From assembly GCA_951406725.2 (NCBI GenBank), contig OX597816.1, positions 169,074,001-169,138,000 on the forward strand: 64,000 nucleotides of DNA, written 5' to 3'. The DNA comes from Octopus vulgaris (Eukaryota). Below the pieces are notes generated by a model. That model did not search any database. It was not told the DNA's origin and saw nothing but the letters and a program-made list of their open reading frames with translations. The translations under genes and the position numbers were made by a program. Positions 10,959 to 63,636 of this stretch are shown piece by piece (within the stretch, counting starts at the first letter, position 1; each line of letters begins with the position of its first letter).

Positions 10959-11418
10959 CAAACTTATATTAAGTGTAAGCTCTGAAGTAGATACAGCTAT
11001 AAATAGTAGAATATAAATTATTCGGTTAAAAATCTTTGGATAGCAAAACAAAAAAGTGGTGTGGGCAAAGGTTTTCTGCTGCACCATCAACCTTTTATCC
11101 ATGCTAAGATTTTTAACGTAGTGCATTACATGGTATTATTTATTACTTCATCCACTTTCAGACATCTCTTTCAAATGATTTATTTAAAATTTACTCTAAG
11201 ATTCTGTGTTTTTCGCAATGCAAGCACACGCACAGGCGCAGACCTTCAAATGGAAAGAAGGACAACCTTCTTGAGGGAGAAATAGATATATTAGATAGAT
11301 AGGTAGATATATTAGATAGATAGGTAGATATAGAAATAGATATATTAGATAGATAGGTAGATATATAGATATTTGGATGGACAGAACATTTGAGCGAGAG
11401 ACAGACAGTCAAACAGAC

Positions 11419-11469
<51 letters not shown>

Positions 11470-11525
11470 GAGAGGGACAGATAGATGATAGATAAATAGA
11501 TAGATAGTTAGATAGATAGACAGAT

Positions 11526-11825
11526 ATGTTTCTTTATTAGCCACACAGGGCTGCACACAGACAGGACAAAATTACAAGGTAGAGCTTTTCTTTTGGGGGT
11601 AAAAGAAGGGGGTTTGGTTTTCGATCAAAAGGGATCGTAAATGGAAAGAAAGAGGACAAAAGGGGGGGGGATAAAATAAAAAAAAGGGGGGAGGTGAGGA
11701 AAAAATGGAAAGGAAAAAAAATTGATCAATAGGGATCGTTATCACAGAAATGTCAATATGAAGTGTAAAGGGGAGGACAGGTGAGGTTTACCCGTGGAAA
11801 GAAAAGCCTACGGAAAAGACCACGG
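11526..11825 (-). mobile_element. 5'-truncated 3' end of a related Tx1-like LINE subfamily, also in (GATA)n
   Basis: Shares blocks with the full element's 3' UTR: TAGCCACACAGGGCT, TGATCAATAGGGATC and GGAAAGAAAA(G/A)CCTAC..AAAAGACC; GATA repeats on both sides. Confidence 0.85.
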
Positions 11826-11891
11826 ATAGATAGATAGATAAATAGATAGATAGCTAGATAGCTAGATAGATAGATAGACAGATAGATAGAC

Positions 11892-11922
<31 letters not shown>

Positions 11923-11979
11923 GAGATAGAGAGATAGATAGATAGACAGATAGATAGATAGACAGATATATAGACAGAC

Positions 11980-12062
<83 letters not shown>

Positions 12063-12093
12063 CAGATAGATAGACAGATAGATAGATAGATAA

Positions 12094-12148
<55 letters not shown>
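11825..12148. repeat. (GATA)n microsatellite (further tracts at 11283-11525 and 18055-18335)
   Basis: Direct reading. Confidence 0.98.
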
Positions 12149-12149
<1 letters not shown>

Positions 12150-12457
12150 CTTTTTATTGTAGCCACACAGGGCTAAACACAGAATAAAAATGGACGAAAT
12201 ACAATGTAGAATTTTTTCTTTTCGAGGTGGGATGGGTGGGGCAAGAAGAAAAAAAAAAAAAAAAAAAAAAAAAAGTTTGATCAATAGGGATCTGTGGGTT
12301 GTGTGGTGTATAAAAAAGCAATATATATATATATATAAGGTTCACAGTTTAGGTGTAGTCTTGGAAAGAAAAACCTACAAAAAAGACCAAGGTCACCTCA
12401 GGCAATTCGAAAAAGAACACATGAGTAAGTCGCCTTACTTCTCGTTGTCTCTTTTGG

Positions 12458-15400
12458 TTACATATTTATGCTTAAAATAGTGTCGTCTTTCATACTGACC
12501 ATTTTTGCCACTTTTACCCACTTTTTATTAAAACATTCGTTCGACAAAGCCTTCCTCTCTATTCTCATCCTCCTTTTCAAGTGGTACTTGAAAAAGTTGA
12601 CGAGAGACTGACCAGAGAGGAAGGTGTTTGTTTGCAGTCCTTTCAAACGCGTCCACCACACACATTCTTTCGCCATAGCCATCAGCGTAACGAAAACCGT
12701 TTTCCCTTCCCGTTTAAAGGAAGGTGGTGGAACAATATTCACAATAGACTCGGCCGATAGGCGAGCCTGACCTACACGTGACAACAGCTGTTCGACGAAG
12801 GACCACAGCTCTGAAATATCTGGACACTGCACGAGTGCGTGCAGAACGGTTTCGTCGCTCTGACCGCATCTCGGGCAGGTCGGTCCGGTGATGGTTTTCG
12901 AACCGTGTCTGTAGCTCTTCTCTCGAACAGGTAGTGCGTCTCGATAGCACTGCCAAGCCAGGGATTTCTGGAAGTTATCCATAGGCCCCGGCCCGAACGT
13001 CGTTCTGAACAGGCGGGTTAGGAATTCCTCGTCGACGCCCAGGTTTGCCCCGAGTGTGTCGTCGGACCTCCCCTCCACTAGTCCTCTATAGAACGCTTTA
13101 GTCGTTTGGAAGTTGCACAAGTTTGACCCCGGTCGGCAGAGCTGCTGTAGAGCTTGGCGACACTCTCGGTGCCAATCGCCCAGTTTCGGTCTCTTTTTGA
13201 TCCACGTTTGCAGTTCGGTCAGTGAGACGAGCTGCGGGAAGTCGCGCCTCACAAACGGCGCCCACACCTGTTCACCGTCGTCGATGAATTTCCAGAGATG
13301 TCGCAGTCTCAGCGCATGCCTGCGCATCATCAACCACGGCATGCCCAGTCCTCCATTCAACGGATGTTGACAGCAAATGGACTTCCTCACCATCGGAACG
13401 CCACCCTTCCACAGGAAGCGGAAGAGTATGCGTTCCAGTTTGGTGATGGTTGCGTCGGGACAAGGTACGACGGTCAGGCGGTAATCGATGACGGATGCGA
13501 TGTACGCGTTCGCCACCTCCGCCCGGCCTTTTAGAGACAGCTTTCTCTCGGCCCATGTTTGGCTGAGAGCGACCACTCTACTCGTGATCTCGTCCCAGTT
13601 CTTATCCATTTGGAGGTCCGGACTGAACCAGACCCCGAGCAATTTAACCGGTCCGTCCGTCCAGCGTCCCACTACTGAGCCGCAGTCGGACGGCATGGGC
13701 TTGCTTCTCCAGGTGCCGAGTAGCAAACCCACTGACTTTTCCGGGTTAATCTTTGCTCCCGTCACCGTTTCATATTTTCTTAGTGTCTCGCCGACCAGCT
13801 CGATGTGCTGGTAGCTCGACACTATGACGGTGACATCGTCCGCATATGCCGACACGCTCGTCCCGCAACCCAGTTCCCGTGGGATGCCTCTCAGTGTCGC
13901 CAGCTTCCGCAGTAGCGGCTCGAGAGTCAATACATACAGAAGCGCCGACAGGGGACACCCCTGACGGACCGAACGCGTGATGTCAAACGGTTTAGACAGG
14001 TGACCGTTCACCCGAATCACCGATCGGATGCCGCTATACAAGGCAGCGATCCAACCGCGGAAGACGGGACCGAAGCCAGCCGCCCTGAGGACGGCCGCCA
14101 AGTACCGATGGTCGACCCTATCGAAGGCTTTAGACTGATCCAAATTTATCAGCGCCCCACCCATGCCAGGATCCTTAACTACCCTGTCCACAATGTAGCG
14201 CATCAGATGGAGGTTGTCATGTATGGTTCTGCCCGGCACGGCGCATGTTTGCGCCCTGTCGATCAGTTTACCAATGACAAGCGCCAACCTCTCGGCTATT
14301 ACTTTGGCCAAAATTTTCAAATCTGCGTTGAGCAGAGTGATGGGCCTGAAATTATCTATAAAATTCCCCTTGTTTGAGTCTTTCTTCAGCAACGTCACTG
14401 CACCTCGGCTCACGAAACCGGGGATTCTCCCGTTTTGTTGCCAGTTGCAGTAGACTGATGCCAAGAGGTCGCCAAACAAGTCTGGCATTCGACAATACAG
14501 CTCGTAGGGTAAACCATCCAATCCAGGCGACTTATCCCTCGCGCAGCCCGCCATCGCATCCCACACGTCAGCGGCTGTGATGGGACTTTCACAACACTCC
14601 GCTTCTCTTGCCGAGAGCCGCGGCAGGTCGGTCAGGTAGGCACTGAAATCCATCCCTCGTTCCGACCCACCACTCGCACCAAACAGTCGAGCAAAGTGCT
14701 GTTGAAAGGCCTCACACATCCTTTCGGGTTCGAGTAAACTGCATCCCTGTTGATCTATTAGAGACCGAATGGTTGATCTGTTGCCACGCTGCGCCTCCGC
14801 TACCCGGGCCTCTCGCGCAGCTTCAATCCCTTCGTTCCTTAAGGCACGCATTTTAGCTCTGACGACGCAACCTTCGTGCTTGGCGTTGAGGTGTTGGTCG
14901 AGGGCCATCCTCGCAGCCAGCACGTTGGTTGCGCTGCCAGTGGTAAGTGCCTCTTCTAGTTTCTTAACTAAGTCTCCCTCTACTCTATTTCGTTCTATCG
15001 CTAATTCCTTGCTAAACCTAATTGATTCCGATTTTATTGCCATTTTCAGGGCGTACCACCAGCGGTTGTTAACGACCGCTCCTGTCAGCGCCCTCTTAAT
15101 TAACTCGCTAATCCGGTTCCTGTAAACCTGTCGCGCTAACAGCGACGTGTTCAGTTTCCAGTAACCGGGACCCTGCCTATGTGTTTTATCTAAGTCGAGC
15201 GTACACGTAACAAATTTGTGATCTGTGTAGCTGACTATTTTAAATTGTGGACAACCTACACTATCCCTATCCGCTGTCCTGCATAGAATTCTATCTAGAT
15301 AAGATCTCGACGATCCGACGCGGTTTGTCCAAGTCCACGTTGGCACGTTCGGATGGTCGAGTCGGAACCTGTCAGACAAATGGAAACGTCTGAGCAGGTC

Positions 15401-15907
15401 TTTGAGGCTCTTACACCCCCTTCTATTCCTATCCCTTCCCACATAATCTAGATGCGTGTCCAAGGTAGCGTTCCAATCCCCTACTAACAGTAAAGTTCTA
15501 GACGTACCCAGGAAAACCTCTAGACGTCTGAAGAAATCCGCCCGACCCGTTAAGGACGGTGCATAAACTGCCATCAGACGGAATGCACACCCATTTCTGC
15601 CATCCACGTCCAAGACAACCAGCCTACCCTCCGGGTCTAGGAATATTGCTCTTACTTTTACCTTTAGACTCTTTCGAAAAAGCACCGCAGTACCTCCACC
15701 ACCCATGTTCGGCAGACAGGGAGAAAAATAAATGTCAAATTGATTGCCAAACATGGACTCGAGGGCCCGCGGCTTACTGAGTCTGGTTTCGCTGATAGCT
15801 ACTAAATCCACGTCCAGTGACTTGATGTCGTTTAGAAGGTAACCTTGCTTCCAAGCCGACGCCAAGCCACGCGCATTCACACAACCTAATTTAAGCATAC
15901 TTGACAT
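12458..15907 (-). CDS. LINE ORF2: APE endonuclease, reverse transcriptase and C-terminal zinc finger (1149 aa)
   Basis: APE motifs NARGL, ISETRL, VYAP, GDWN, YLDRI, TDH; RT motifs SPGLDG, FRPITLLN, DQSKAFDRVDH, RQGCPLS, YADD; zinc finger CPRC...HALVQC. Confidence 0.97.
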   Translation of the reverse strand: MSSMLKLGCVNARGLASAWKQGYLLNDIKSLDVDLVAISETRLSKPRALESMFGNQFDIYFSPCLPNMGGGGTAVLFRKSLKVKVRAIFLDPEGRLVVLDVDGRNGCAFRLMAVYAPSLTGRADFFRRLEVFLGTSRTLLLVGDWNATLDTHLDYVGRDRNRRGCKSLKDLLRRFHLSDRFRLDHPNVPTWTWTNRVGSSRSYLDRILCRTADRDSVGCPQFKIVSYTDHKFVTCTLDLDKTHRQGPGYWKLNTSLLARQVYRNRISELIKRALTGAVVNNRWWYALKMAIKSESIRFSKELAIERNRVEGDLVKKLEEALTTGSATNVLAARMALDQHLNAKHEGCVVRAKMRALRNEGIEAAREARVAEAQRGNRSTIRSLIDQQGCSLLEPERMCEAFQQHFARLFGASGGSERGMDFSAYLTDLPRLSAREAECCESPITAADVWDAMAGCARDKSPGLDGLPYELYCRMPDLFGDLLASVYCNWQQNGRIPGFVSRGAVTLLKKDSNKGNFIDNFRPITLLNADLKILAKVIAERLALVIGKLIDRAQTCAVPGRTIHDNLHLMRYIVDRVVKDPGMGGALINLDQSKAFDRVDHRYLAAVLRAAGFGPVFRGWIAALYSGIRSVIRVNGHLSKPFDITRSVRQGCPLSALLYVLTLEPLLRKLATLRGIPRELGCGTSVSAYADDVTVIVSSYQHIELVGETLRKYETVTGAKINPEKSVGLLLGTWRSKPMPSDCGSVVGRWTDGPVKLLGVWFSPDLQMDKNWDEITSRVVALSQTWAERKLSLKGRAEVANAYIASVIDYRLTVVPCPDATITKLERILFRFLWKGGVPMVRKSICCQHPLNGGLGMPWLMMRRHALRLRHLWKFIDDGEQVWAPFVRRDFPQLVSLTELQTWIKKRPKLGDWHRECRQALQQLCRPGSNLCNFQTTKAFYRGLVEGRSDDTLGANLGVDEEFLTRLFRTTFGPGPMDNFQKSLAWQCYRDALPVREKSYRHGSKTITGPTCPRCGQSDETVLHALVQCPDISELWSFVEQLLSRVGQARLSAESIVNIVPPPSFKREGKTVFVTLMAMAKECVWWTRLKGLQTNTFLSGQSLVNFFKYHLKRRMRIERKALSNECFNKKWVKVAKMVSMKDDTILSINM

Positions 15908-15964
15908 TTACGAAAATTGTGTTTTACACACTATATTAGAAGAGACAAGAGGCAAGAAGTGAGG

Positions 15965-17854
15965 TCACTTACTCATTTTAAAAGTTTCATTTTTTTCTTC
16001 TTCTTCTTCATTTGTATCGTTTTTGATGAGGTGTTTGTATAGTTTTTTCGACAGGTATCGTTGATACCCGCCTACTGCATTCGGAAATAATGTTTTCAGT
16101 ATGTGGTGTTGTGCTTGTGTTATGTGTAAAATTCTGATGTGTTTCGGTGGTGTGGTGTGCGGATGATTTTTTGTCTTAAAATCATCTTCACAGACGACCA
16201 TGTTAGATTTGATGTAGTCCATTAATTCTTTATTGTCTGTGTCTATTGCAGTTAGTTGTGTGTGTGGTTTTACGGGTTCATTACTTTTTTGATTGTCTAG
16301 GGGAATGTTGTCCTGAGTGAGATATCTCCCTGCTTTAATTCCTTGTTTGGTGGATTTTTTGGATCTTTTTCTTTTACCCCCTGTGGCTATTTGCCATTCC
16401 GTCGAACTTTCTTCGTCCGACGTATCAGTATGGGGTAGAGGAAAAAGAACAGGATCACTATGTATGCTTGTATAAATTGTTGATGTTTTGTGCGGTGTTT
16501 GTGTTGTTGTGGTGTTAGGGGTAGCATTTGTCTTCTCGTCAGTGTTTTCTGTCTTTTTAATTGTCGTCCTGGGTGTGGGCGTGGGTCTATTTTTTGTTAA
16601 TTCAACAGGTTTAATTGGTTGTGAAGTCAACGGTGATTGTGTTGGTACTGTTTTTCTTGGTGATGTTGTTGGGGTTTGTCTGCTGGTTTGTTGTTTTTCT
16701 TGGCGTTGTTCCATAATTGAGTGTGTTGGTGTTGGTGTTGGCAACAAAGGGATTTTATTTGTTTTCTGAATTGTTCTTTCTTGTTTTTTCTGTACCAGAT
16801 CGCACTTGGCAATCAAATGTTCGGGGCTGCCACATTTGTAGCATCTAGGCTTTTTGCCTTCTGCCATAACATATAAGCATTGCCCATTCTCCAAGTATAT
16901 CTTGTCGGGTAGGCTCTCGATAGAGGCCCCCTCAATCTGGATGGTCACTACTACTGTTTTTCCACCCCAATTGTCGTTTAGGTACACGGCTGTTTCTAGA
17001 ATATTGATCTTTTTCAAGTGGTAACAGATTGCCCCTGTTATCCATTTGTTCGGCATATCGGGGGGTACATTTCTGATAGTAATTCTACTCACCCCCTGGT
17101 TTTTATAATAAGGGACCATGATGATTTCATCAATTCCCAGAGACTCAGTAGAGTGAGCTTTTGCCACTTCCTGGTTAGGGAAGCGGACCACTACTGTGTT
17201 AAACTGGGGACCCCAGTTTATATACTCTTTTTCTTTCATTATGTTTTTTAAACATTTCTCCACATCAGTTTTTGTAATCTGTTCATTTGGTTTTTTGTTT
17301 TTTCTAATAATTTTATATACAATTGTCTTATTTTCAATTTCTTCTTTTATATGTTGAGGTGTATGCAGGACTAAATCTTGTCCACGGGTTGTAAAGAGAG
17401 CTCTTGTTTCTATGAGCTCTTCATTTGTGAATGTAACAATCTCCTTTTTCTGGCGAAGAATATCTGCGAAATTTACTGTTGTTGACTTTTTTGTATTGGC
17501 ATCTTCACTATTAGATAGTTCATTTTTATTGTTGTTCTTGTTGTTGCTGTTGTTTTTGTCAATAGTTTTCGTTTCAGTTTTATTTTTATCATTTATGTTG
17601 GTCGTGGTCGTGGTGGTGGTGGTGGTGGAGGTGGTGGTGGTAGCAGTTGTTGTCTCGTGGTTGCTGTTGTTAGTGGTGGTGGTGGCGGTGGTGACAGGGC
17701 TGTTAACGCACGTGGTTGCAGCGTTCCTTTCACCGAATTTCACGTTGGCATTTTCCGTGCGAACGTTCTTTTTTCTCTCTGTCGTTTCCAGACTAGGAAA
17801 ATTTTGTTCCAAAAAAGAACGCGACCAGCGTTCAACAATAAAATTTCTAGACAT
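15965..17854 (-). CDS. LINE ORF1, gag-like nucleic-acid-binding protein (629 aa)
   Basis: Open frame directly upstream of ORF2; CCHC knuckle CYKCGSPEHLIAKC; Thr/Asn low-complexity N-terminus. Confidence 0.9.
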   Translation of the reverse strand: MSRNFIVERWSRSFLEQNFPSLETTERKKNVRTENANVKFGERNAATTCVNSPVTTATTTTNNSNHETTTATTTTSTTTTTTTTTNINDKNKTETKTIDKNNSNNKNNNKNELSNSEDANTKKSTTVNFADILRQKKEIVTFTNEELIETRALFTTRGQDLVLHTPQHIKEEIENKTIVYKIIRKNKKPNEQITKTDVEKCLKNIMKEKEYINWGPQFNTVVVRFPNQEVAKAHSTESLGIDEIIMVPYYKNQGVSRITIRNVPPDMPNKWITGAICYHLKKINILETAVYLNDNWGGKTVVVTIQIEGASIESLPDKIYLENGQCLYVMAEGKKPRCYKCGSPEHLIAKCDLVQKKQERTIQKTNKIPLLPTPTPTHSIMEQRQEKQQTSRQTPTTSPRKTVPTQSPLTSQPIKPVELTKNRPTPTPRTTIKKTENTDEKTNATPNTTTTQTPHKTSTIYTSIHSDPVLFPLPHTDTSDEESSTEWQIATGGKRKRSKKSTKQGIKAGRYLTQDNIPLDNQKSNEPVKPHTQLTAIDTDNKELMDYIKSNMVVCEDDFKTKNHPHTTPPKHIRILHITQAQHHILKTLFPNAVGGYQRYLSKKLYKHLIKNDTNEEEEEKNETFKMSK

Positions 17855-18058
17855 TTTCTAATGTCGAGAAGAAAATAATAGAAATGAAATGGGGTCGAAA
17901 CTGCCCCTAGGGGCGAATTCCTCCCTTGTAAAAGCACTCAAATGAAAGTTGGTTGCCTTACACACCTTATTTGCAAAAATCTACACAAAAATTGGCCTAT
18001 AAATAGTCAAAATAAACGATTACCTTCGGAGCCGAAACGACATCACATCCGTCAATAG

Positions 18059-18089
<31 letters not shown>

Positions 18090-18104
18090 GATAGATAGAT
18101 AGAC

Positions 18105-18163
<59 letters not shown>

Positions 18164-18172
18164 TAGATAGAC

Positions 18173-18253
<81 letters not shown>

Positions 18254-18259
18254 TACAGG

Positions 18260-18293
<34 letters not shown>

Positions 18294-18299
18294 TACAGG

Positions 18300-18335
<36 letters not shown>

Positions 18336-20890: not shown

Positions 20891-22159
20891 GAGATATAGG
20901 ATTAAAAATGTCAATCTTCAAAATGGCAGACCGCCTAAATCGTCTAAAATTTCTAATACATCTAAGATATGAGATAAAAGTTTAAGAATAGTAAACAAAA
21001 AAGGATCCGAAAAATGAGGGTGTTACATCTAGGGTTGACTGCCTAGGACTCGCGTTTTCATTTTCCTCTAGTTTTTTCTTATTTCACATTGGGTCTCTAC
21101 GAGCACTCCGTAATTAGTCCATACTTTCTATAATATACTTATTATATATACGAGCAAAACGCCTCCCCCCCGTCCAATGGAGGTACTGAGTTGTCAAACA
21201 TTTAAACCAAATTTTCTCAAAACAACTTGTCCGACCGTCCCATAGGCCTCCCTTTGAGAAACACTGATTTAACCTAAATTTGAGACACCAGCAAATGAAG
21301 AAATAAAGATAGACCTTTTTTCTATTCCAAAGAAGAAAAACGATTTTATTCACACAAATATGCAACCGAAGAGTTTAAAGTATCAGTAATGATAAGGCTG
21401 TTGACTGGGAGAACGGCTTTATCGATCGTATTCTCACCTAGAATCGATTTTTGTAATTTTTTCAAGACTTATACACGTCCTGATACCGTTGGTATCTACA
21501 TATCAAATTTGAGCGCAATCGGATGGAGGATACCTGAGATCCTAGAAGACACACACATAGACAGATAAAACTGATTTTATATAATAGATATGTGTGTGGT
21601 GTGTGAGTGTATATGTAAATGTGTGTGCGTGTTTGTTTGTGAGTGTGCATATATATGCCTTTATATTTGCACGCACACGCGCGCACACACACACATATAT
21701 AGACACACACACACACACACGCATATATACATATGCGTATTTTTAAATTATAAGTATAATTTTTAAATACACACGCACTCAGTCACACACACAACGAATA
21801 CATATTCACACATTTACACAATCAGAATGTATTTCCCTGAATGGTTTGTTAGTCTTAGACAATTTTTGTCACTTGATATTATTCTCTTTCTCTTTTAGAG
21901 TCGGTCCCAAATGCCACCGAGCGATTGTTTAACCTTTTCTGGAAGCGGATGTAATTGAAGAATTCATGTATGTACTATATATACTTTTACTCCTCTCTGT
22001 TGAAGCTACTCAACTCACTGATGTAGCTTCTTGGGGATAAATAAAGATTATGTTTCTGTCCTGAGTACGATTACTTTCGCTTGTATAAACAATCACATGC
22101 ATACATATAAGCATACACACATGTACGTAACGTTTGTGTCTCATATACATACATAATAT

Positions 22160-23175
22160 ATACATACATACATACATACATACATACATACATACATACA
22201 TACATACATACATACATACATACATACATACATACACACATACATACATGCATGCGTGCATACATACATACATACATACACACATACATACATACACACA
22301 TACATACATACATACATACATACATACATACATACACACATACATACATACATACATACATACATACATACATACACATACATACATACATACATACATA
22401 CATACATACATACACACATACATACATACATACATACATACATTCATACATACACACATACATACATACATACATACATACATACATACATACATACATA
22501 CGTGCAGACATACATACATACATACATACACACATACATGCATACATACACACATACATACATACATACATACATACATACATTCATACATACACACATG
22601 CATACATACATACATACATACGTACATACATACATACATACATACATACATACACACATACATACATACATACATACATACATACATACACACATACATA
22701 CATACATACATACATACATACATACATACATACATACATACATACATACATACATACGACATACATACATACATACATACATACATACATACACACATAC
22801 ATACATACATACATACATACATACATGCATACATACATACATACATACATACATACATACATACATACATTCATACATACATACATACATACATACATAC
22901 ATACATACATACATACATACATACATACATACACACATACATACATACATACATACATACATACATTACATACATACATACATACATACACACATTCATA
23001 CATACATACATACATACATACATACATACATACATACATACACACACACACATTCATACATACACACACATACATACATACATACATACATACATACATA
23101 CATACATACATGCATACATACATACACACATACATACATACATACATACATACATACATACATACATACATACGT
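22160..23175. repeat. ~1 kb (CATA)n microsatellite
   Basis: Direct reading. Confidence 0.98.
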
Positions 23176-23297
23176 ACATATGTATGTATGCATATACATG
23201 CGTGATTATGTATACACACATGCGTGTGTATACATAAATACGTGTATAATATATGTGTATACACTAACATGCCTCTCTCTATATACATGTATAATAT

Positions 23298-27235: not shown

Positions 27236-30200
27236 GGCAGTGCCCCAGCATGGCCACAGCTCGTGAGCTGAAACTAGATAAAAATAAAAAAAATATATAT
27301 ATATGTGTGTGTGCGAGTGTGTATCTTTGTGCTTGTTGCTCTCTGAGTGACAACCGGTGTTAGTTTGTTTATGTCCCCGTAACTTGGGGGTTCTTCAAAA
27401 GAGACCATATAAATACCAACATTTTTTAAAAAGCGTATTTTGGGGTTGATTTGCTCGACTAAACTTTTGAAAGTGGTATCCCATGACTGCAGTCCAATGA
27501 CTCTGTATGTGTGTGTGCGGGTGTTTTTACGCACATGCTCCTTAAGGGTCTTTTCATGAGCGGATGCAAAAATTTTTCACATAAATAAAATAAGCTACAA
27601 CATTCTTCAGTTTCCATGGTTTAAGGAACCAGAAATGTACTGAAAATTTTAGACAGAAGAGCTTCTGCTTAAGAGCACATTAAACGAAACATTTTTGCGG
27701 CATAATGAACTATTTTCGCAAAATTTTAGGTACATAAAAACAGATAATAAAATCTGAGTTTATGTATATCATAAAAACTGTTTATTCTATAATTCAAATG
27801 GAATTAATAGCATATTTTAATTATGTAGGAGACATTAAATAATATACTTTTATATACAACATAGCATAATATGTTCTCAAGAAATAATTTACGACCAAAT
27901 AGTACAAGATTATATTGTATCGGATCACTAGTTATAGGAGTGAAGGTGTTTGATTAAGAGGTGTGTGACTCACTGAAGCAGACGATAGATATAACTGGAT
28001 GTCATTCATTGGCCTTATGTCTTGTCACAAGAAATCAATACCTCGCCTGAAATAAATATCCTGAAGTGTTTATCCTAGAGGTGATATGAGAAATGACAGC
28101 AAATGAGGAAACTATTTCACCAATAATTATTTACGCCATAGAAAATTTTGGTGTAATACATTTCCTATTAGAATACATCAGTTCCATCTAAAGTGTACTT
28201 CAAACGTAGATCGAGTTTATGAATGATAGCTCAACCAGCTGGAAATAGCAGCAAAGTCAATGAATTCAATGGTGTAAATGGCAGAAGTACTCTGTAAGTG
28301 ACAAGTATTTCATAACTTTTCAGCGTAGAGACCAATTCGCTTTATGGGAAAAGTTACTTGCCATAGAATACTTCTATATCCAGTTTGGAATTCACTTTTC
28401 ATTTATTTTATACTATAGAAAGTTGAGTTGAAGAACGGTCAATGAACGTTTGTAAAATGCGTTCTTACAATTAACCGTTCACAAATCTGTTTTTCTGGAC
28501 AATGAACTTCAAGTGCAAACTGTAAAAGAGAGAGATGTCCAGTATTTATCTTTTCTGTTAGTAATTAATTCAGAATGTACATACTTTGAAAAGACCGAAT
28601 ATATTGCAGACTTCTCACAGGAATAAAGTTAGTGTCATATCATTCGAGGAGCTTTGTGAGGTCAATGAAGATCTAACCAGATGTTATGTTAGATATGGAG
28701 AGGCTGCTGACCTTGCTATGGATAGGAGAGCAATAGCAAAAGCGGATTTGGCAGTATTGAGTCCACGACATCTCTCATGTTGTGGACTAGTCCGTTTTGA
28801 AAAGAAGGACGTTGTTGAGAAAAGGATGAATTTCTGTGATTTGGGAACGGTTGAGAACAATGAAGATGTAGATATTTGCAGAAGCTGGTGGATAACAGAA
28901 TTCGTGAAGCACTTGATAAAAAAGCAACATCTAATTATGTTCCTTTTTGTACTGCGTTCAAATTCAAAACGTTGCCTTTCATTTAGATACCATATCATAA
29001 TGCACCAGGAAAGCGCTGATGGCAATGAAATCAACTGTTCATCTTCTCTTTAAAATGTATGCATTTGTGGTAAGGTTAAAAGATTGTATTTTCATAGTTT
29101 TCATTAACTGTGAAACAAATCTAAATAACTGTTTCCTAACATTATCTTCCTATGTCTTTGACTTTAATATCACAGAGCAGGTACACTAAAGCGACTTCAC
29201 TTCGCCTTTTTACGAGTAGGTGTAAGAGTTTTAAGGAAGACGAAAATGAACATCGCAACAGTTATATTAAGGACGTAACCTGGGTAAGTAAACTGAAATC
29301 TAGTCATTAGATTTGTTCGCTCGGAGCCTATCTTAAATTCTACGTGAAACTTGCAAGGTGAGGTGGACAAACTGATGTAATGCATTCCCGAGGCAAAAAA
29401 TACTAATAAACAAAATGTTTTCAAATTGTTTTCTTATCTTCTGTTTAATTTCCTATAACTTCCACAACAGTATTTACTCATATGAACTAACATACTACAT
29501 ATTATTTCCATCTACTCCTCTGTCTTTCATTATCTCTACTGCATCCTGTACTCTAGATTTCCTACAACAATCTTTGACCAATTATTATTTCCTCTCCTAA
29601 GACTGGAACTCACTGAGATTTCCTCTTTGCCCACATTTTACATATAAGCATCAATCTAATGCGGCTTATATTCATGTCAGCTAAGTTGATCACACCATTC
29701 TGAGAAGGCCTACAAAGAGTCAAAAGTGATGCTCTCCTCTAATTCTTTTAGTTGAAAAACGAATAAAATATGAAAATACGTCTTTATAAATATTGGATTT
29801 CTTTTAGCAAAACACAAGAATCAATAAAGTCAATAAATGCAATATCATAAGAGTTATATCAACATTACAGTTTCTTTACAATTAATCTCAATTGAGATGA
29901 AGAGACAAAGAACATGATATACTAAAACGTTAAAATCTTAGTGATTATTGGTCTACTTAGTTTCATTTTCAAACGTTGATGACAGTCCCTATATTTTGAA
30001 GAACGACTTTAAAGTCTTTTAATCAATACAAACACTAAGACAATTAATTGTTCTATACAATAATAAGTTGAAAATTATAAATGATTTTTAATTGAATTTT
30101 GAATTTTTAACAGCAACATGTAGGTATACTAATAATGTATATTTAAAATACTTTATAAATGCAAATGAAGAACGAATGATTGACAACAATTAATCAATGG

Positions 30201-31619: not shown

Positions 31620-32990
31620 TAGCATTGCTCAAGGTACTTCCTAAATAAGTAAATTTAGGTACAGTCTCCAACCTTTGACCATTCACAGTTATAAAAGGTT
31701 CCACATATATCTTGGAGGGAGCGGTCTGGTACATTATAAAAGTTTTTTAGATTGATTGTTCGACCCAATGCTGCACATGCTGCAGAAATCGCATTCACCA
31801 TGTGCTGCATATTTTTCTGAGAATGTGCCAACAGGTCACAATCATCTGCGTACAGAAACTCAATAATGCAGAACTTTCGTTTTGGCACAGAGTCTTTTGA
31901 GATTGAACAGTTTTCCTGTTGTCCTATATCTTATATAGACCCCTGCATGAAATATTTAAAAGCTATTTGAAAGACTATTGCGAAATATATAGCAAACAGT
32001 GTATAAGAAGGAATGTCACCTTGCTCTACACTATTTTCTACAGAAATTGGATCTGAAAGGTGCCTCCAATATTAACTCTCACTTCCATCTTGTCATGAAA
32101 TTGTCTAAGCATTATCACAAATTTTTCAGGGCATCCTAGCTTTTTTAGGATCTCCCAAAGTGCAATTCTATTGATAAAATCAAACGCTTTTGTTAGGTCA
32201 ATGAAAACCTGGTATAAGTCCATATCCTGTTCGATGCACTTCTCTTGCAAATGTCTAGCCGAAAATATCATATCCATAGTACTCCTACTATCCCTAAACC
32301 CACATTGCGATTCTGGTAGAACCTCATCAGCAATGTGCAGAAGCAATCTATCCAGCATTACCCTACAGAGGACCTTTCCAGCAACAGCTAACAGACAGAT
32401 GCCGCGATAATTATCACAGACATCCTTTTCCACCTTTAGATTTATATAGAATCTCCATAGTTGCATCACACCAATCCGGAGGAACCGCTTCACTTTGCCA
32501 AAATCCTCTGAATCACATCTGCCAACATTGCTCAAAGATGATCACCACCATATTTATATATCTCTGCACCTAGTCCATCCATACCAGAGGCCTTTCCATT
32601 GTTCAATTTCCTGATTGCTGCTTTTATTTCAGCCATGTTTGGAACTTCTGCTATAACATGTTTTATTGGTCTCTCTCAAGAAAAGAGAGATCAACTTCAG
32701 TGGGTCTATTGGGCAACTCATCAAAATATACTTTCCATATCCCAACAGTATCTTTAGGATTTGTTAATAATTCTGTACCATCCTTGCTCCGAAGTGGCGC
32801 AACCTTTGATGAAACTGGTCCATAAACTTTTTTCAAGAGAGAGTAAAAAGGTTTGGAATTATTAGCATTTGAAGCTTCTTGGATTTCATCGCATCTATCA
32901 CTCCACCAATTTTTTCTGCATCATCCGTAGCTTCCTCTGCACAGTTGCTTTTACTGCTTTGAAATATGTAGCCACTGTTCTTTTCGTTGA
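31620..32990 (-). pseudogene. Degenerate RTE-clade LINE reverse transcriptase
   Basis: NYRGICLL, PESQCGFR, FIDLTKAFD and LYADDC in broken frames. Confidence 0.9.
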
Positions 32991-39065: not shown

Positions 39066-39680
39066 GGCGCAGGCGTAGATGTGTAGTAAGAAGTTTGCTT
39101 CTCAACCATATGGTTCCGGGTTCAGTCCCACTGCGTGTTACCTTAGGTTAGTATCTATTTCTTTACTACCCACAAGGGGCCAAACACAGAGGGGACAAAC
39201 AAGGACAGACAAACAGATTAAGTCGATTACATCGACCCAGTACATAACTGGTACTTAATTTATCGACCCCGAAAGGATGAAAGGCAAAGTCAACCTCGGC
39301 GGAATTTGAACTCAGAACGTGGTGGCAGACGAAGTACGGCTACGCATTTCGCCCGGCGTGCTAACGTTTCTGCCAGCTCGCCGCCTTTAGGTTAGTATCT
39401 TCTACTATAGTCTTGGACCGACCACAGCCTTGGGAGTGAATTTGGCAGAGAGCAACTGAAAGAAGCCCGTCGTATATATATCTACGTGCGCGTGGCTTTG
39501 CATCTGTGTTTGTTCCCCACTACTGCTTAACAACCGGTGTTGGCGAGTTTACGTTCGGCAAAAGAGATCGATAGAGGCTTAGAAAAAGAAAATAAGTACT
39601 AGGGGCGATTCATTCAACTAAAATTCCTTAAGGCGGTGCCCCAGCATGGCCGCAGTCTAATGATTGAAACAAGTGAAAGA
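39066..39680 (+). mobile_element. Diverged SINE family A copy interrupted by a family B SINE
   Basis: Head at 39066-39154; body resumes after 39387. Confidence 0.8.
39155..39386 (-). mobile_element. SINE family B, full length, with TSD
   Basis: TTAGGTTAGTATCT duplicated at 39143-39156 and 39387-39400. Confidence 0.9.
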
Positions 39681-62332: not shown

Positions 62333-63048
62333 TTGAAGGTTTTAATCTCAATCTTTATTCAGTTGATCAATCTAAATTCAATTGGTCGATAAATAACCGC
62401 TACGTTCTTGTACATCAGTCGTAAACAACGTGCATAGCAAAGGCAGGAGCCTCTACCTTAGAAATAGTAGTCAAATCAAACCTCCCTTATACCATAGCTT
62501 ACTGTCTACAATAAAGGATACAACAAAGTCCTAAAATGCAAAAACAAGAGAGGGATTGTCACGGTTAGAATGTCATTGATTAGTCCACTCCATCAACGCT
62601 GATCTTTGGATAAACAACAAAGAACACAATCCATCTCGAAACTAATCGTAATAATCATACATATGTGATTTGTGCAATGTAAATATCGATTTCTTATACT
62701 AGCATCGGGTTTCTTTTGGGTTATAATCGATTGAGTCGCCATTAATAAATGCCAGAAGCTTATTTTATGAGTCAAAGTCGGCCTCAGCAGAACGTGCACT
62801 TAAAGCACAGAGACGAAAGTAACGTATGTTATTCTTTAATATTGCTTTCGAATTTTAGCACAAGGCCAGCAAGTTCAGTAGTGGGGGGGGGGGGGCTAAT
62901 TCGATTACGTCGACTCCAGTGCTCAGCTGATAGGTATTCTATTGACCCCGAAAGGATGAAAGGAACAGGCGACCTCGACGGAATTTGAACTCAGAATGTA
63001 CAGCGGACAAAATGCCGCTAAACATTTTGCTCAGCATGCGAACGATTC

Positions 63049-63636
63049 TTATTTCTTTATTGCCCACTAGGAGCTAACCACAGAGGGAACAAACAAGGAC
63101 AGACAAAGGGACTAAGTCGATTACATCGACCCCAGTGCGTAACTGGTATTTAATTTATCGACCCCGAAAGGATGAAATGCAAAGTCGACCCCGGCGGAAT
63201 TTGAACTCAGAACATAACGGCAGACGAAATACCTATTTCTTTACTACCCACGAGGGACTAAACACAGAGGGAACAAACAAGGACAGAGAGACGGATTAAA
63301 TCGATTACATCGACACCAGTGCGTAACTGGTACTTATTTAATCGACCCCGAAACCATGAAAGGCAAAGTCGACCTCGGCGGAATTTGAACTCAGAACGTA
63401 ACGGCAGACGAAATACCTATTTCTTTACTACCCACAAGGGGCTAAGCACAGAGAGGAGAAACGGATTAAGTCGATTATATTGACCCCAGTGTGCAACTGG
63501 TACTTATTTAATCGACCCCGAAAGAATGAAAGGCAAAGTCGACTACGGCGGAATTTGAACTCAGAACGTAGCGACAGACGAAATACCACTAAGCATTTCG
63601 CCCGGCGCGCTAACGATTCTGCCTGCTCGCTGCCTT
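63049..63636 (-). mobile_element. Tandem trimer of SINE family B
   Basis: Three head-to-tail units (two of ~185 bp plus the full-headed unit) with the recurring junction GACGAAATACCTATTTC. Confidence 0.9.

Follow-up and report, generated by a model that had tools for sequence, protein, structure and literature searches.

The microsatellite targets listed in PMC3812793 are ACAY, AC, TC, TTC, and TAA, and the specificity of the apurinic/apyrimidinic-type endonuclease (APE) of long interspersed nuclear elements (LINEs) for targets of this kind is described there as poorly understood (this and the other papers cited here by PMC number were available in part). Kibi and Koshi, Tx1 elements of teleosts, are specific for (TC)n and (TTC)n, respectively (Kojima and Fujiwara 2004, as cited in PMC4494074 and PMC3812793), and the Tx1 targets named in PMC4494074 are (TC)n, (TTC)n, (TTCC)n, and (TTTC)n, with more in its figure 3 and supplements; neither "GATA" nor "TATC" is present in its main text as available. 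The window analysed here, a stretch of 64,000 nucleotides of the Octopus vulgaris genome (contig OX597816.1, positions 169,074,001 to 169,138,000), contains a full-length LINE, referred to below as family A, flanked on both sides by (GATA)n. Family A is, with good probability, a young and intact LINE, likely of the Tx1 type, that inserts into pre-existing (TATC)n/(GATA)n arrays, likely owing to nicking of the GATA strand by its APE. The observations underlying this reading are the anatomy of the element, its flanks, its single orientation, the fixed 3' phase of the repeat, target duplications at some copies of a sister family, B, and the occurrence of each related family at a repeat of its own. 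An initial annotation of the window, made from the sequence alone, had proposed a GATA-targeting family, which stands, but it missed sister families with other targets and a short interspersed nuclear element (SINE) sharing their tail.

Family A resembles Kibi and Koshi in combining an APE-type endonuclease with microsatellite-specific insertion, and its sister family C has the (TC)n target of Kibi; compared by description, it works like these two elements. It differs from them in its target, (TATC)n/(GATA)n, and presumably in its host group. The crocodilian Tx1 elements found at (TTCC)n and (TTTC)n (PMC4494074) have a tetranucleotide microsatellite target, as family A does, but these repeats, like TC and TTC, are pure pyrimidine strands, whereas TATC and ATT, the targets of families A and D, are not; moreover, three unlike targets are found here among families 59–81% identical within one genome. 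Dong, specific for (TAA)n, and Waldo, specific for (ACAY)n (PMC3812793), are likewise microsatellite-targeting, and family D has the (TAA)n target of Dong. No GATA-targeting case is present in the available text of PMC4758252, PMC4824008, PMC11203168, PMC8967140, PMC5203782, and PMC8869645, and a GATA-targeting LINE was not found in the full-text literature, a scope outside which most subscription papers lie. In octopus, 80 L1-Tx1 families, 13 of them recently active, have been reported, with no target analysis found in the available part of that report (PMC13282606). Families A–D may already be catalogued in Repbase or Dfam, with or without their targets; what is new here is (GATA)n as a target variant among microsatellite-specific LINEs, set apart by the literature only.

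The window copy of family A is 5908 bp long (12149..18056, minus strand), with a 5' boundary that can be placed only to within 2 nt, as its first bases are themselves a continuation of the repeat. A 5' untranslated region (UTR) of ca. 200 nt (17855..18056, minus strand), which in the best-matching copies starts at the same (TATC)n phase, is followed by two open reading frames (ORFs) separated by 57 nt: ORF1, 629 aa from ATG (15965..17854, minus strand), and ORF2, 1149 aa (12458..15907, minus strand), coding for an APE endonuclease, a reverse transcriptase (RT), and a C-terminal zinc motif. Both frames are uninterrupted, in agreement with the earlier description of a full-length two-ORF LINE without stops or frameshifts. 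The 3' UTR (12149..12457, minus strand) comprises a small predicted hairpin (12161–12174) followed by AATAAAAAGT and is devoid of poly(A). The 3' end had been said to run directly into the repeat, as it does, but the real end is AATAAAAAGT followed by TATC, with one A fewer than described. One (GATA)n array lies upstream of the 5' end (18055..18335, plus strand), and another, of 324 bp (11825..12148, plus strand), separates the 3' end from a copy of family B, which is a 5'-truncated 3' UTR fragment in the same orientation (11527..11826, minus strand). The fragment is 74–83% alike to the 3' UTR of family A in three short patches only, while other copies of family B reach further 5'; downstream of it lies a degenerate (GATA)n/(GA)n array (11282..11526, plus strand; 74% matches, including a (GA)n stretch). 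The repeat at both junctions, the lack of poly(A), and a diverged, truncated relative ca. 320 bp away in the same orientation had all been recognized before; the relative is now assigned to the sister family.

The genome (2.8 Gb, 227 contigs) contains 215 exact matches to a 19-nt repeat-free pattern from the 3' terminus of family A. The 3' flanks were analysed for the first 90 of these ends in genome order, and 7 kb of upstream sequence was fetched for 60 of the 90 copies. TATC directly follows the 3' end in 90/90 copies and TC in none, while two TATC units are found in a random 24-nt stretch at a frequency of 0.35% (342 of 97,696 positions), so the association at the 3' flank is not due to chance. 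The 60 copies comprise 45 full-length ones, two of which carry an internally inserted or replaced segment, and 15 truncated ones. TATC precedes 42 of the 45, the three exceptions lying in (TA)n, (TC)n, and unique DNA, and all 30 best-matching 5' ends, which are a selected set, start at one TATC phase. Tabulation of the flanks at both termini, proposed in the initial annotation as a genome-wide check, gives the repeat at both in most of the copies sampled. In PMC4494074 a Tx1 target preference is taken to exist when more than 20% of flanks are of one type; for family A the figures are 90/90 at the 3' side and 48/60 at the 5' side.

More direct evidence that the repeat preceded the element comes from family B, which has 6,959 exact 3' ends in the genome, intact frames at another locus (L211), and an ORF2 81.5% identical to that of family A. 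Its 3' flank is TATC in 25/30 copies (genome order). Truncation within 1.5 kb affects 22 of the first 30 copies listed, the breakpoints ranging from 38 to 1352 nt, and TATC lies directly upstream of 20 of these 22 (binomial P ~2e-47 at the 0.35% background); in a wider, partly selected mixed set it does so in 59/68, the misses including two mis-mapped rows. Since truncation removes any repeat head that a copy could have brought along, the repeat preceded the insertion. Target duplications of 13–14 bp that include a non-repeat base pattern on both sides are found in four truncated family B copies, at L156 (14 bp), L200/L217 (13 bp), L194 (14 bp), and L191 (13 bp). Copies of family B situated in (TA)n, (CA)n, or other sequence (L185, L188, L189) have no TATC after their 3' end, so that TATC is not an obligatory tail. 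It was suggested at the outset that unique 5' flanks in most copies would reduce the repeat to a self-encoded tail; the counts for full-length family A and truncated family B copies are the opposite, and they support (TATC)n as an insertion target and not merely a tail. The view that (TATC)n is nothing but a self-encoded tail or head, by which insertions at unspecific sites would seed microsatellites, draws on the absence of 5' TATC from 9/15 truncated family A copies and on the ability that full-length copies may have to bring the repeat at their 5' end. It is nevertheless very improbable in view of the truncated family B copies and of 3' flanks that hold two or three TATC units only, or none.

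Several facts weigh against insertion into pre-existing arrays. The 90 sampled family A copies include the window's own one, and some are near-duplicates or lie in tandem clusters. Only 6/15 truncated family A copies have TATC at the 5' side; of the nine that lack it, two show visible rearrangement, two adjoin degenerate repeats, and for the other five there is no explanation. If the repeat is carried by the RNA itself, the TATC upstream of full-length copies does not count as independent evidence. Clean duplications are present in only 4/22 informative truncated copies, three further calls being chance-like, and in 0/6 informative full-length family A copies (identical ends were merged in this count, and its family A numbers concern a subset).

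The association could also be passive, random insertions surviving in arrays, or one ancestral insertion having been spread by duplication or unequal crossing over. Tandem trains, of A and B at the start of contig C1 and of D on C4, C47, and C50, and the near-duplicates at a few of the sampled loci would be expected of such a process, but the copies are spread over many contigs, their outer flanks are unrelated, they are truncated at many different points, the phase and orientation are fixed, and each family has a repeat of its own, which makes this explanation scarcely credible. The train on C1, the largest contig, occupies its very start (18,000–58,000) and extends over ca. 40 kb, with TATC arrays between its A and B copies (L211–L213, L442–L450). 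Chimeric-looking copies occur as well: L377 combines an A-like 5' UTR with a B-type body, and L131 is a family A copy with a B-like ORF1 segment.

With (TATC)n as the target, we infer that targeting is driven by the endonuclease acting as a sequence-specific nickase. By analogy with L1 and Tx1 elements, the ORF2 protein would bind the hairpin and AATAAA at the 3' end of its own RNA, introduce a nick in the bottom strand, at GATA^GATA or close to it, and copy the RNA from that nick by target-primed reverse transcription, the top strand presumably being cut ca. 13–14 nt away. The RNA may start inside the upstream array, in which case the full-length cDNA could base-pair, at its 5' end, with the target; such pairing would explain why 45 of the 60 family A copies are full length, without a visible duplication. 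That the RNA begins inside the array is suggested, on small numbers, by a non-canonical 12-nt head common to five family A copies on three contigs, 43–66 ORF2 substitutions apart where compared, together with the lack of duplications in the six informative full-length copies. Every insertion would leave the target on both sides, and therefore arrays could be hit again and tandem trains could form.

The main rival to a specific nick is pairing of the RNA end: the (UAUC)n end of a read-through RNA would anneal to a (GATA)n strand exposed by a nick of low specificity. The array downstream of every copy would provide the repeat to a read-through RNA, the shared 12-nt head indicates that a flanking repeat can move with the element, and the hairpin loop usually linked with specificity is nearly identical in families A and D despite their different targets. 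On the other hand, the 3' phase is one and fixed in A and B although their last bases differ; at L194 the flank leaves TATC after 5 nt and is duplicated on the 5' side, so that little pairing was available; off-target family B copies have no TATC; the other endonuclease loops differ among A/B, C, and D; and specificity of the Tx1L endonuclease has been reported (cited in PMC4494074). Pairing in place of a specific nick is therefore unlikely, and RNA-end pairing may act alongside the enzyme.

Endonuclease-driven targeting can be viewed against the sister families C and D, which, like A and B, end in similar tails, where AATAAA is preceded by a small predicted hairpin. Family C, found via its related tail, has 369 exact ends, with (TC)n as the 3' flank in 28/30 (genome order); one full-length copy has (CT)n on both sides, and about half of the truncated copies, as judged by eye, have TC upstream. 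A fully intact ORF2 was not found in the six family C regions examined, and for the comparison of family C its endonuclease was taken from one copy and its RT from another. Family C loci are L219 and L371–L375 (contigs C8 and C1). Family D, found via the homologue P0001, has 850 exact ends and an intact ORF2 of 1145 aa; its 3' flank is (ATT)n in 30/30 (genome order), and (ATT)n precedes 8/8 intact 5' ends, truncated copies being less regular. Dong belongs to the R4 clade and Waldo to the R1 clade, and the likeness of family D to Dong would be convergent because Dong lies in another clade. Family D forms tandem trains with a period of ca. 5.87 kb (contig C4, 93.80–93.84 Mb, C47, and C50, among others; L382–L411, L502–L509), and the small contigs C47 and C50 consist largely of them. 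Four loci (L473, L489, L490, and L497) match family D in the last 32–33 nt only and are possibly another short element with a borrowed D tail.

The identity of ORF2 to that of family A is 81% for B, 71% for D, and 59–64% for C; between family A and B1, 306 silent and 213 replacing codons are counted, the site ratio being 812:2635. In an alignment of the endonucleases, the hairpin corresponding to the variable segment of PDB 2V0R (named LTX), which we take to be a Tx1L loop graft, differs between A and D by one residue and is thus insufficient by itself to account for the TATC/ATT difference. The loops at residues 61–70 and 115–124 of family A are alike in A and B and different in C and D, and are candidate specificity determinants. 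A broader scenario is offered tentatively, as a possibility we rate below even chances: families A–D would form a radiation of microsatellite-specific LINEs that has not been described and is separate from Kibi and Koshi. The target would have shifted between (TATC)n, (TC)n, and (ATT)n through a few changes in these two loops, which lie outside the classic hairpin, full-length copies would integrate by means of the repeat at the RNA 5' end, and the 3' tail would have passed from this lineage to one of the most abundant SINEs of the genome.

Family A is a LINE of the L1 superfamily, with two ORFs, an ORF2 containing APE, RT, and a zinc motif, and an RT nearest to L1. The APE domain (15203..15907, minus strand) has N11, E40, Y115, D144, N146, D205, and H230, which align with the catalytic residues of human L1 and presumably have the roles of their L1 counterparts. 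The RT domain (13628..14380, minus strand) contains YADD at residues 688–691, and the zf-RVT/CX2CX8HX4C zinc motif (12803..12967, minus strand) starts from residue 1011 (E=7.5e-6, just under the cut-off). The best match of ORF2 among solved structures, extending over endonuclease and RT, is human L1 ORF2p (E=3e-58; 200 bits vs. 79 for R2). The centre of ORF1 resembles a pair of RNA-binding domains with a single CCHC knuckle after them, an arrangement of type I ORF1s, while its ends are of low complexity and rich in Thr, Asn, and Pro. The zf-CCHC match is below the Pfam cut-off in A (E=0.002) and above it in C, no family being matched in B1; the Atlas look-alikes of ORF1 include RNA-binding domains of the ZCCHC3 type, at 0.91. 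A Transposase_22 match is absent from family A ORF1 in the Pfam search, and family A differs from human L1 in this as well as in the lack of poly(A) and in its strict repeat target.

Type I ORF1s with an RNA recognition motif-like fold and CCHC have been tied to Tx1 (PMC5203782), and the anatomy of family A is consistent with membership in the Tx1 clade. The score against human L1 was tried as a discriminator between L1 and Tx1 and rejected, as four test proteins, Keno-type included, all score 263–295 bits. In trees of 56 and 32 rows, A–D and P0001 form one clade (support 99/100), within which A and B group together (100/99); it is joined by a long branch to U2-inserted Keno-type rows, the outgroup branch is very long, and the rows include no named Tx1L, Kibi, Koshi, or L1. 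Keno, a Tx1 element specific for U2 small nuclear RNA genes, has the same ORF2 layout as family A but a different target, a separate tree branch, and, in Keno-type elements, an A-rich 3' end. Two Keno-type metagenome elements lying in U2 genes (L236 and L238) are 29% and 26% identical to family A in their best segments, and another metagenome element (L249) ends at a U1 gene. The target-labelled relatives compared, all of them associated with U2 or U1, show 26–29% identity and fall on separate branches. No TATC-flanked element is present among 80 metagenome relatives, and none of the 20 relative protein clusters looked up bears a name, the Atlas names being generic.

The tail of the family A 3' UTR is common to families B, C, and D and to a SINE of 231 bp, which is not part of the LINE. 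In the window the SINE forms a head-to-tail run with a period of 184 (62897..63634, minus strand) and has at least nine further copies (e.g., 39156–39385); its exact tail matches in the genome number 88,449. The last ca. 55 nt of the SINE align with the tails of A, B, and C with scores of 33–44 vs. maxima of 23–28 of 2000 shuffles each; similarity to the family D tail is not significant (89 of 2000 shuffles). As judged from this alignment, the SINE tail was likely taken from this LINE lineage; no LINE with the exact SINE tail turned up, and no search aimed at one was made. None of 30 SINE copies is at a TATC, TC, or ATT target, on which count mobilization of the SINE by family A at GATA sites was rejected; most copies have GGTA as their 3' flank, frequently as the beginning of the following SINE. 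SINEU/Tx1-Mar (PMC4494074) also links a SINE with Tx1 elements, but there the link consists in shared targets and heads, whereas the SINE described here shares the 3' tail and none of the three targets. Apparent short target duplications are seen at the SINE copies L427 and L433, and no tRNA was detected in four SINE loci with ARAGORN.

The window copy of family A and 6 of 60 others have both frames open, and ORF2 is open in 13/60. Among 40 copies with a near-complete ORF2, the closest pairs differ by four substitutions in 3.45 kb and no pair is identical; the window copy is 12 substitutions from its nearest. Family A is therefore recent, and its youth and intact frames suggest, as sequence features only, current activity. 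Public runs under three organism labels contain 50–76% of family A words. Contigs from four runs guessed to be RNA, and possibly DNA, cover 29–30 of 30 bins of the element but carry no strand or end information and so speak neither for nor against expression, and the 3' end of the element is seen in no contig of these four runs.

What gives this set of elements its value is that closely related families within it have three different targets. Frames are intact in A and B, which use (TATC)n, and in D, which uses (ATT)n at 71% ORF2 identity, and with C in addition, domain swaps can map the determinants of specificity; the one-residue difference between the A and D hairpins points to other loops. 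The families shape the microsatellites of the host, in which exact ends of A and B number at least 7,174 vs. 68,171 pure (TATC)6 runs, and this is relevant to marker design and repeat annotation. Among the first 30 such runs listed, 12 have no nearby A or B end and 18 have one; a single tandem train accounts for nine of the latter and a single array for four, so these numbers do not give a genome-wide rate. An element that is intact and whose target is strict, multicopy, and non-coding offers, in addition, a starting point for tools of site-directed insertion.

Elsewhere in the window, a stop-free frame of 162 aa with no Pfam match is found at 28565–29053 (plus strand), and a reverse transcriptase fragment of another LINE (RVT_1, E=5e-14) at 32038–32541 (minus strand). 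A further tetranucleotide array, (ATAC)n, extends over 1 kb at 22145–23180.

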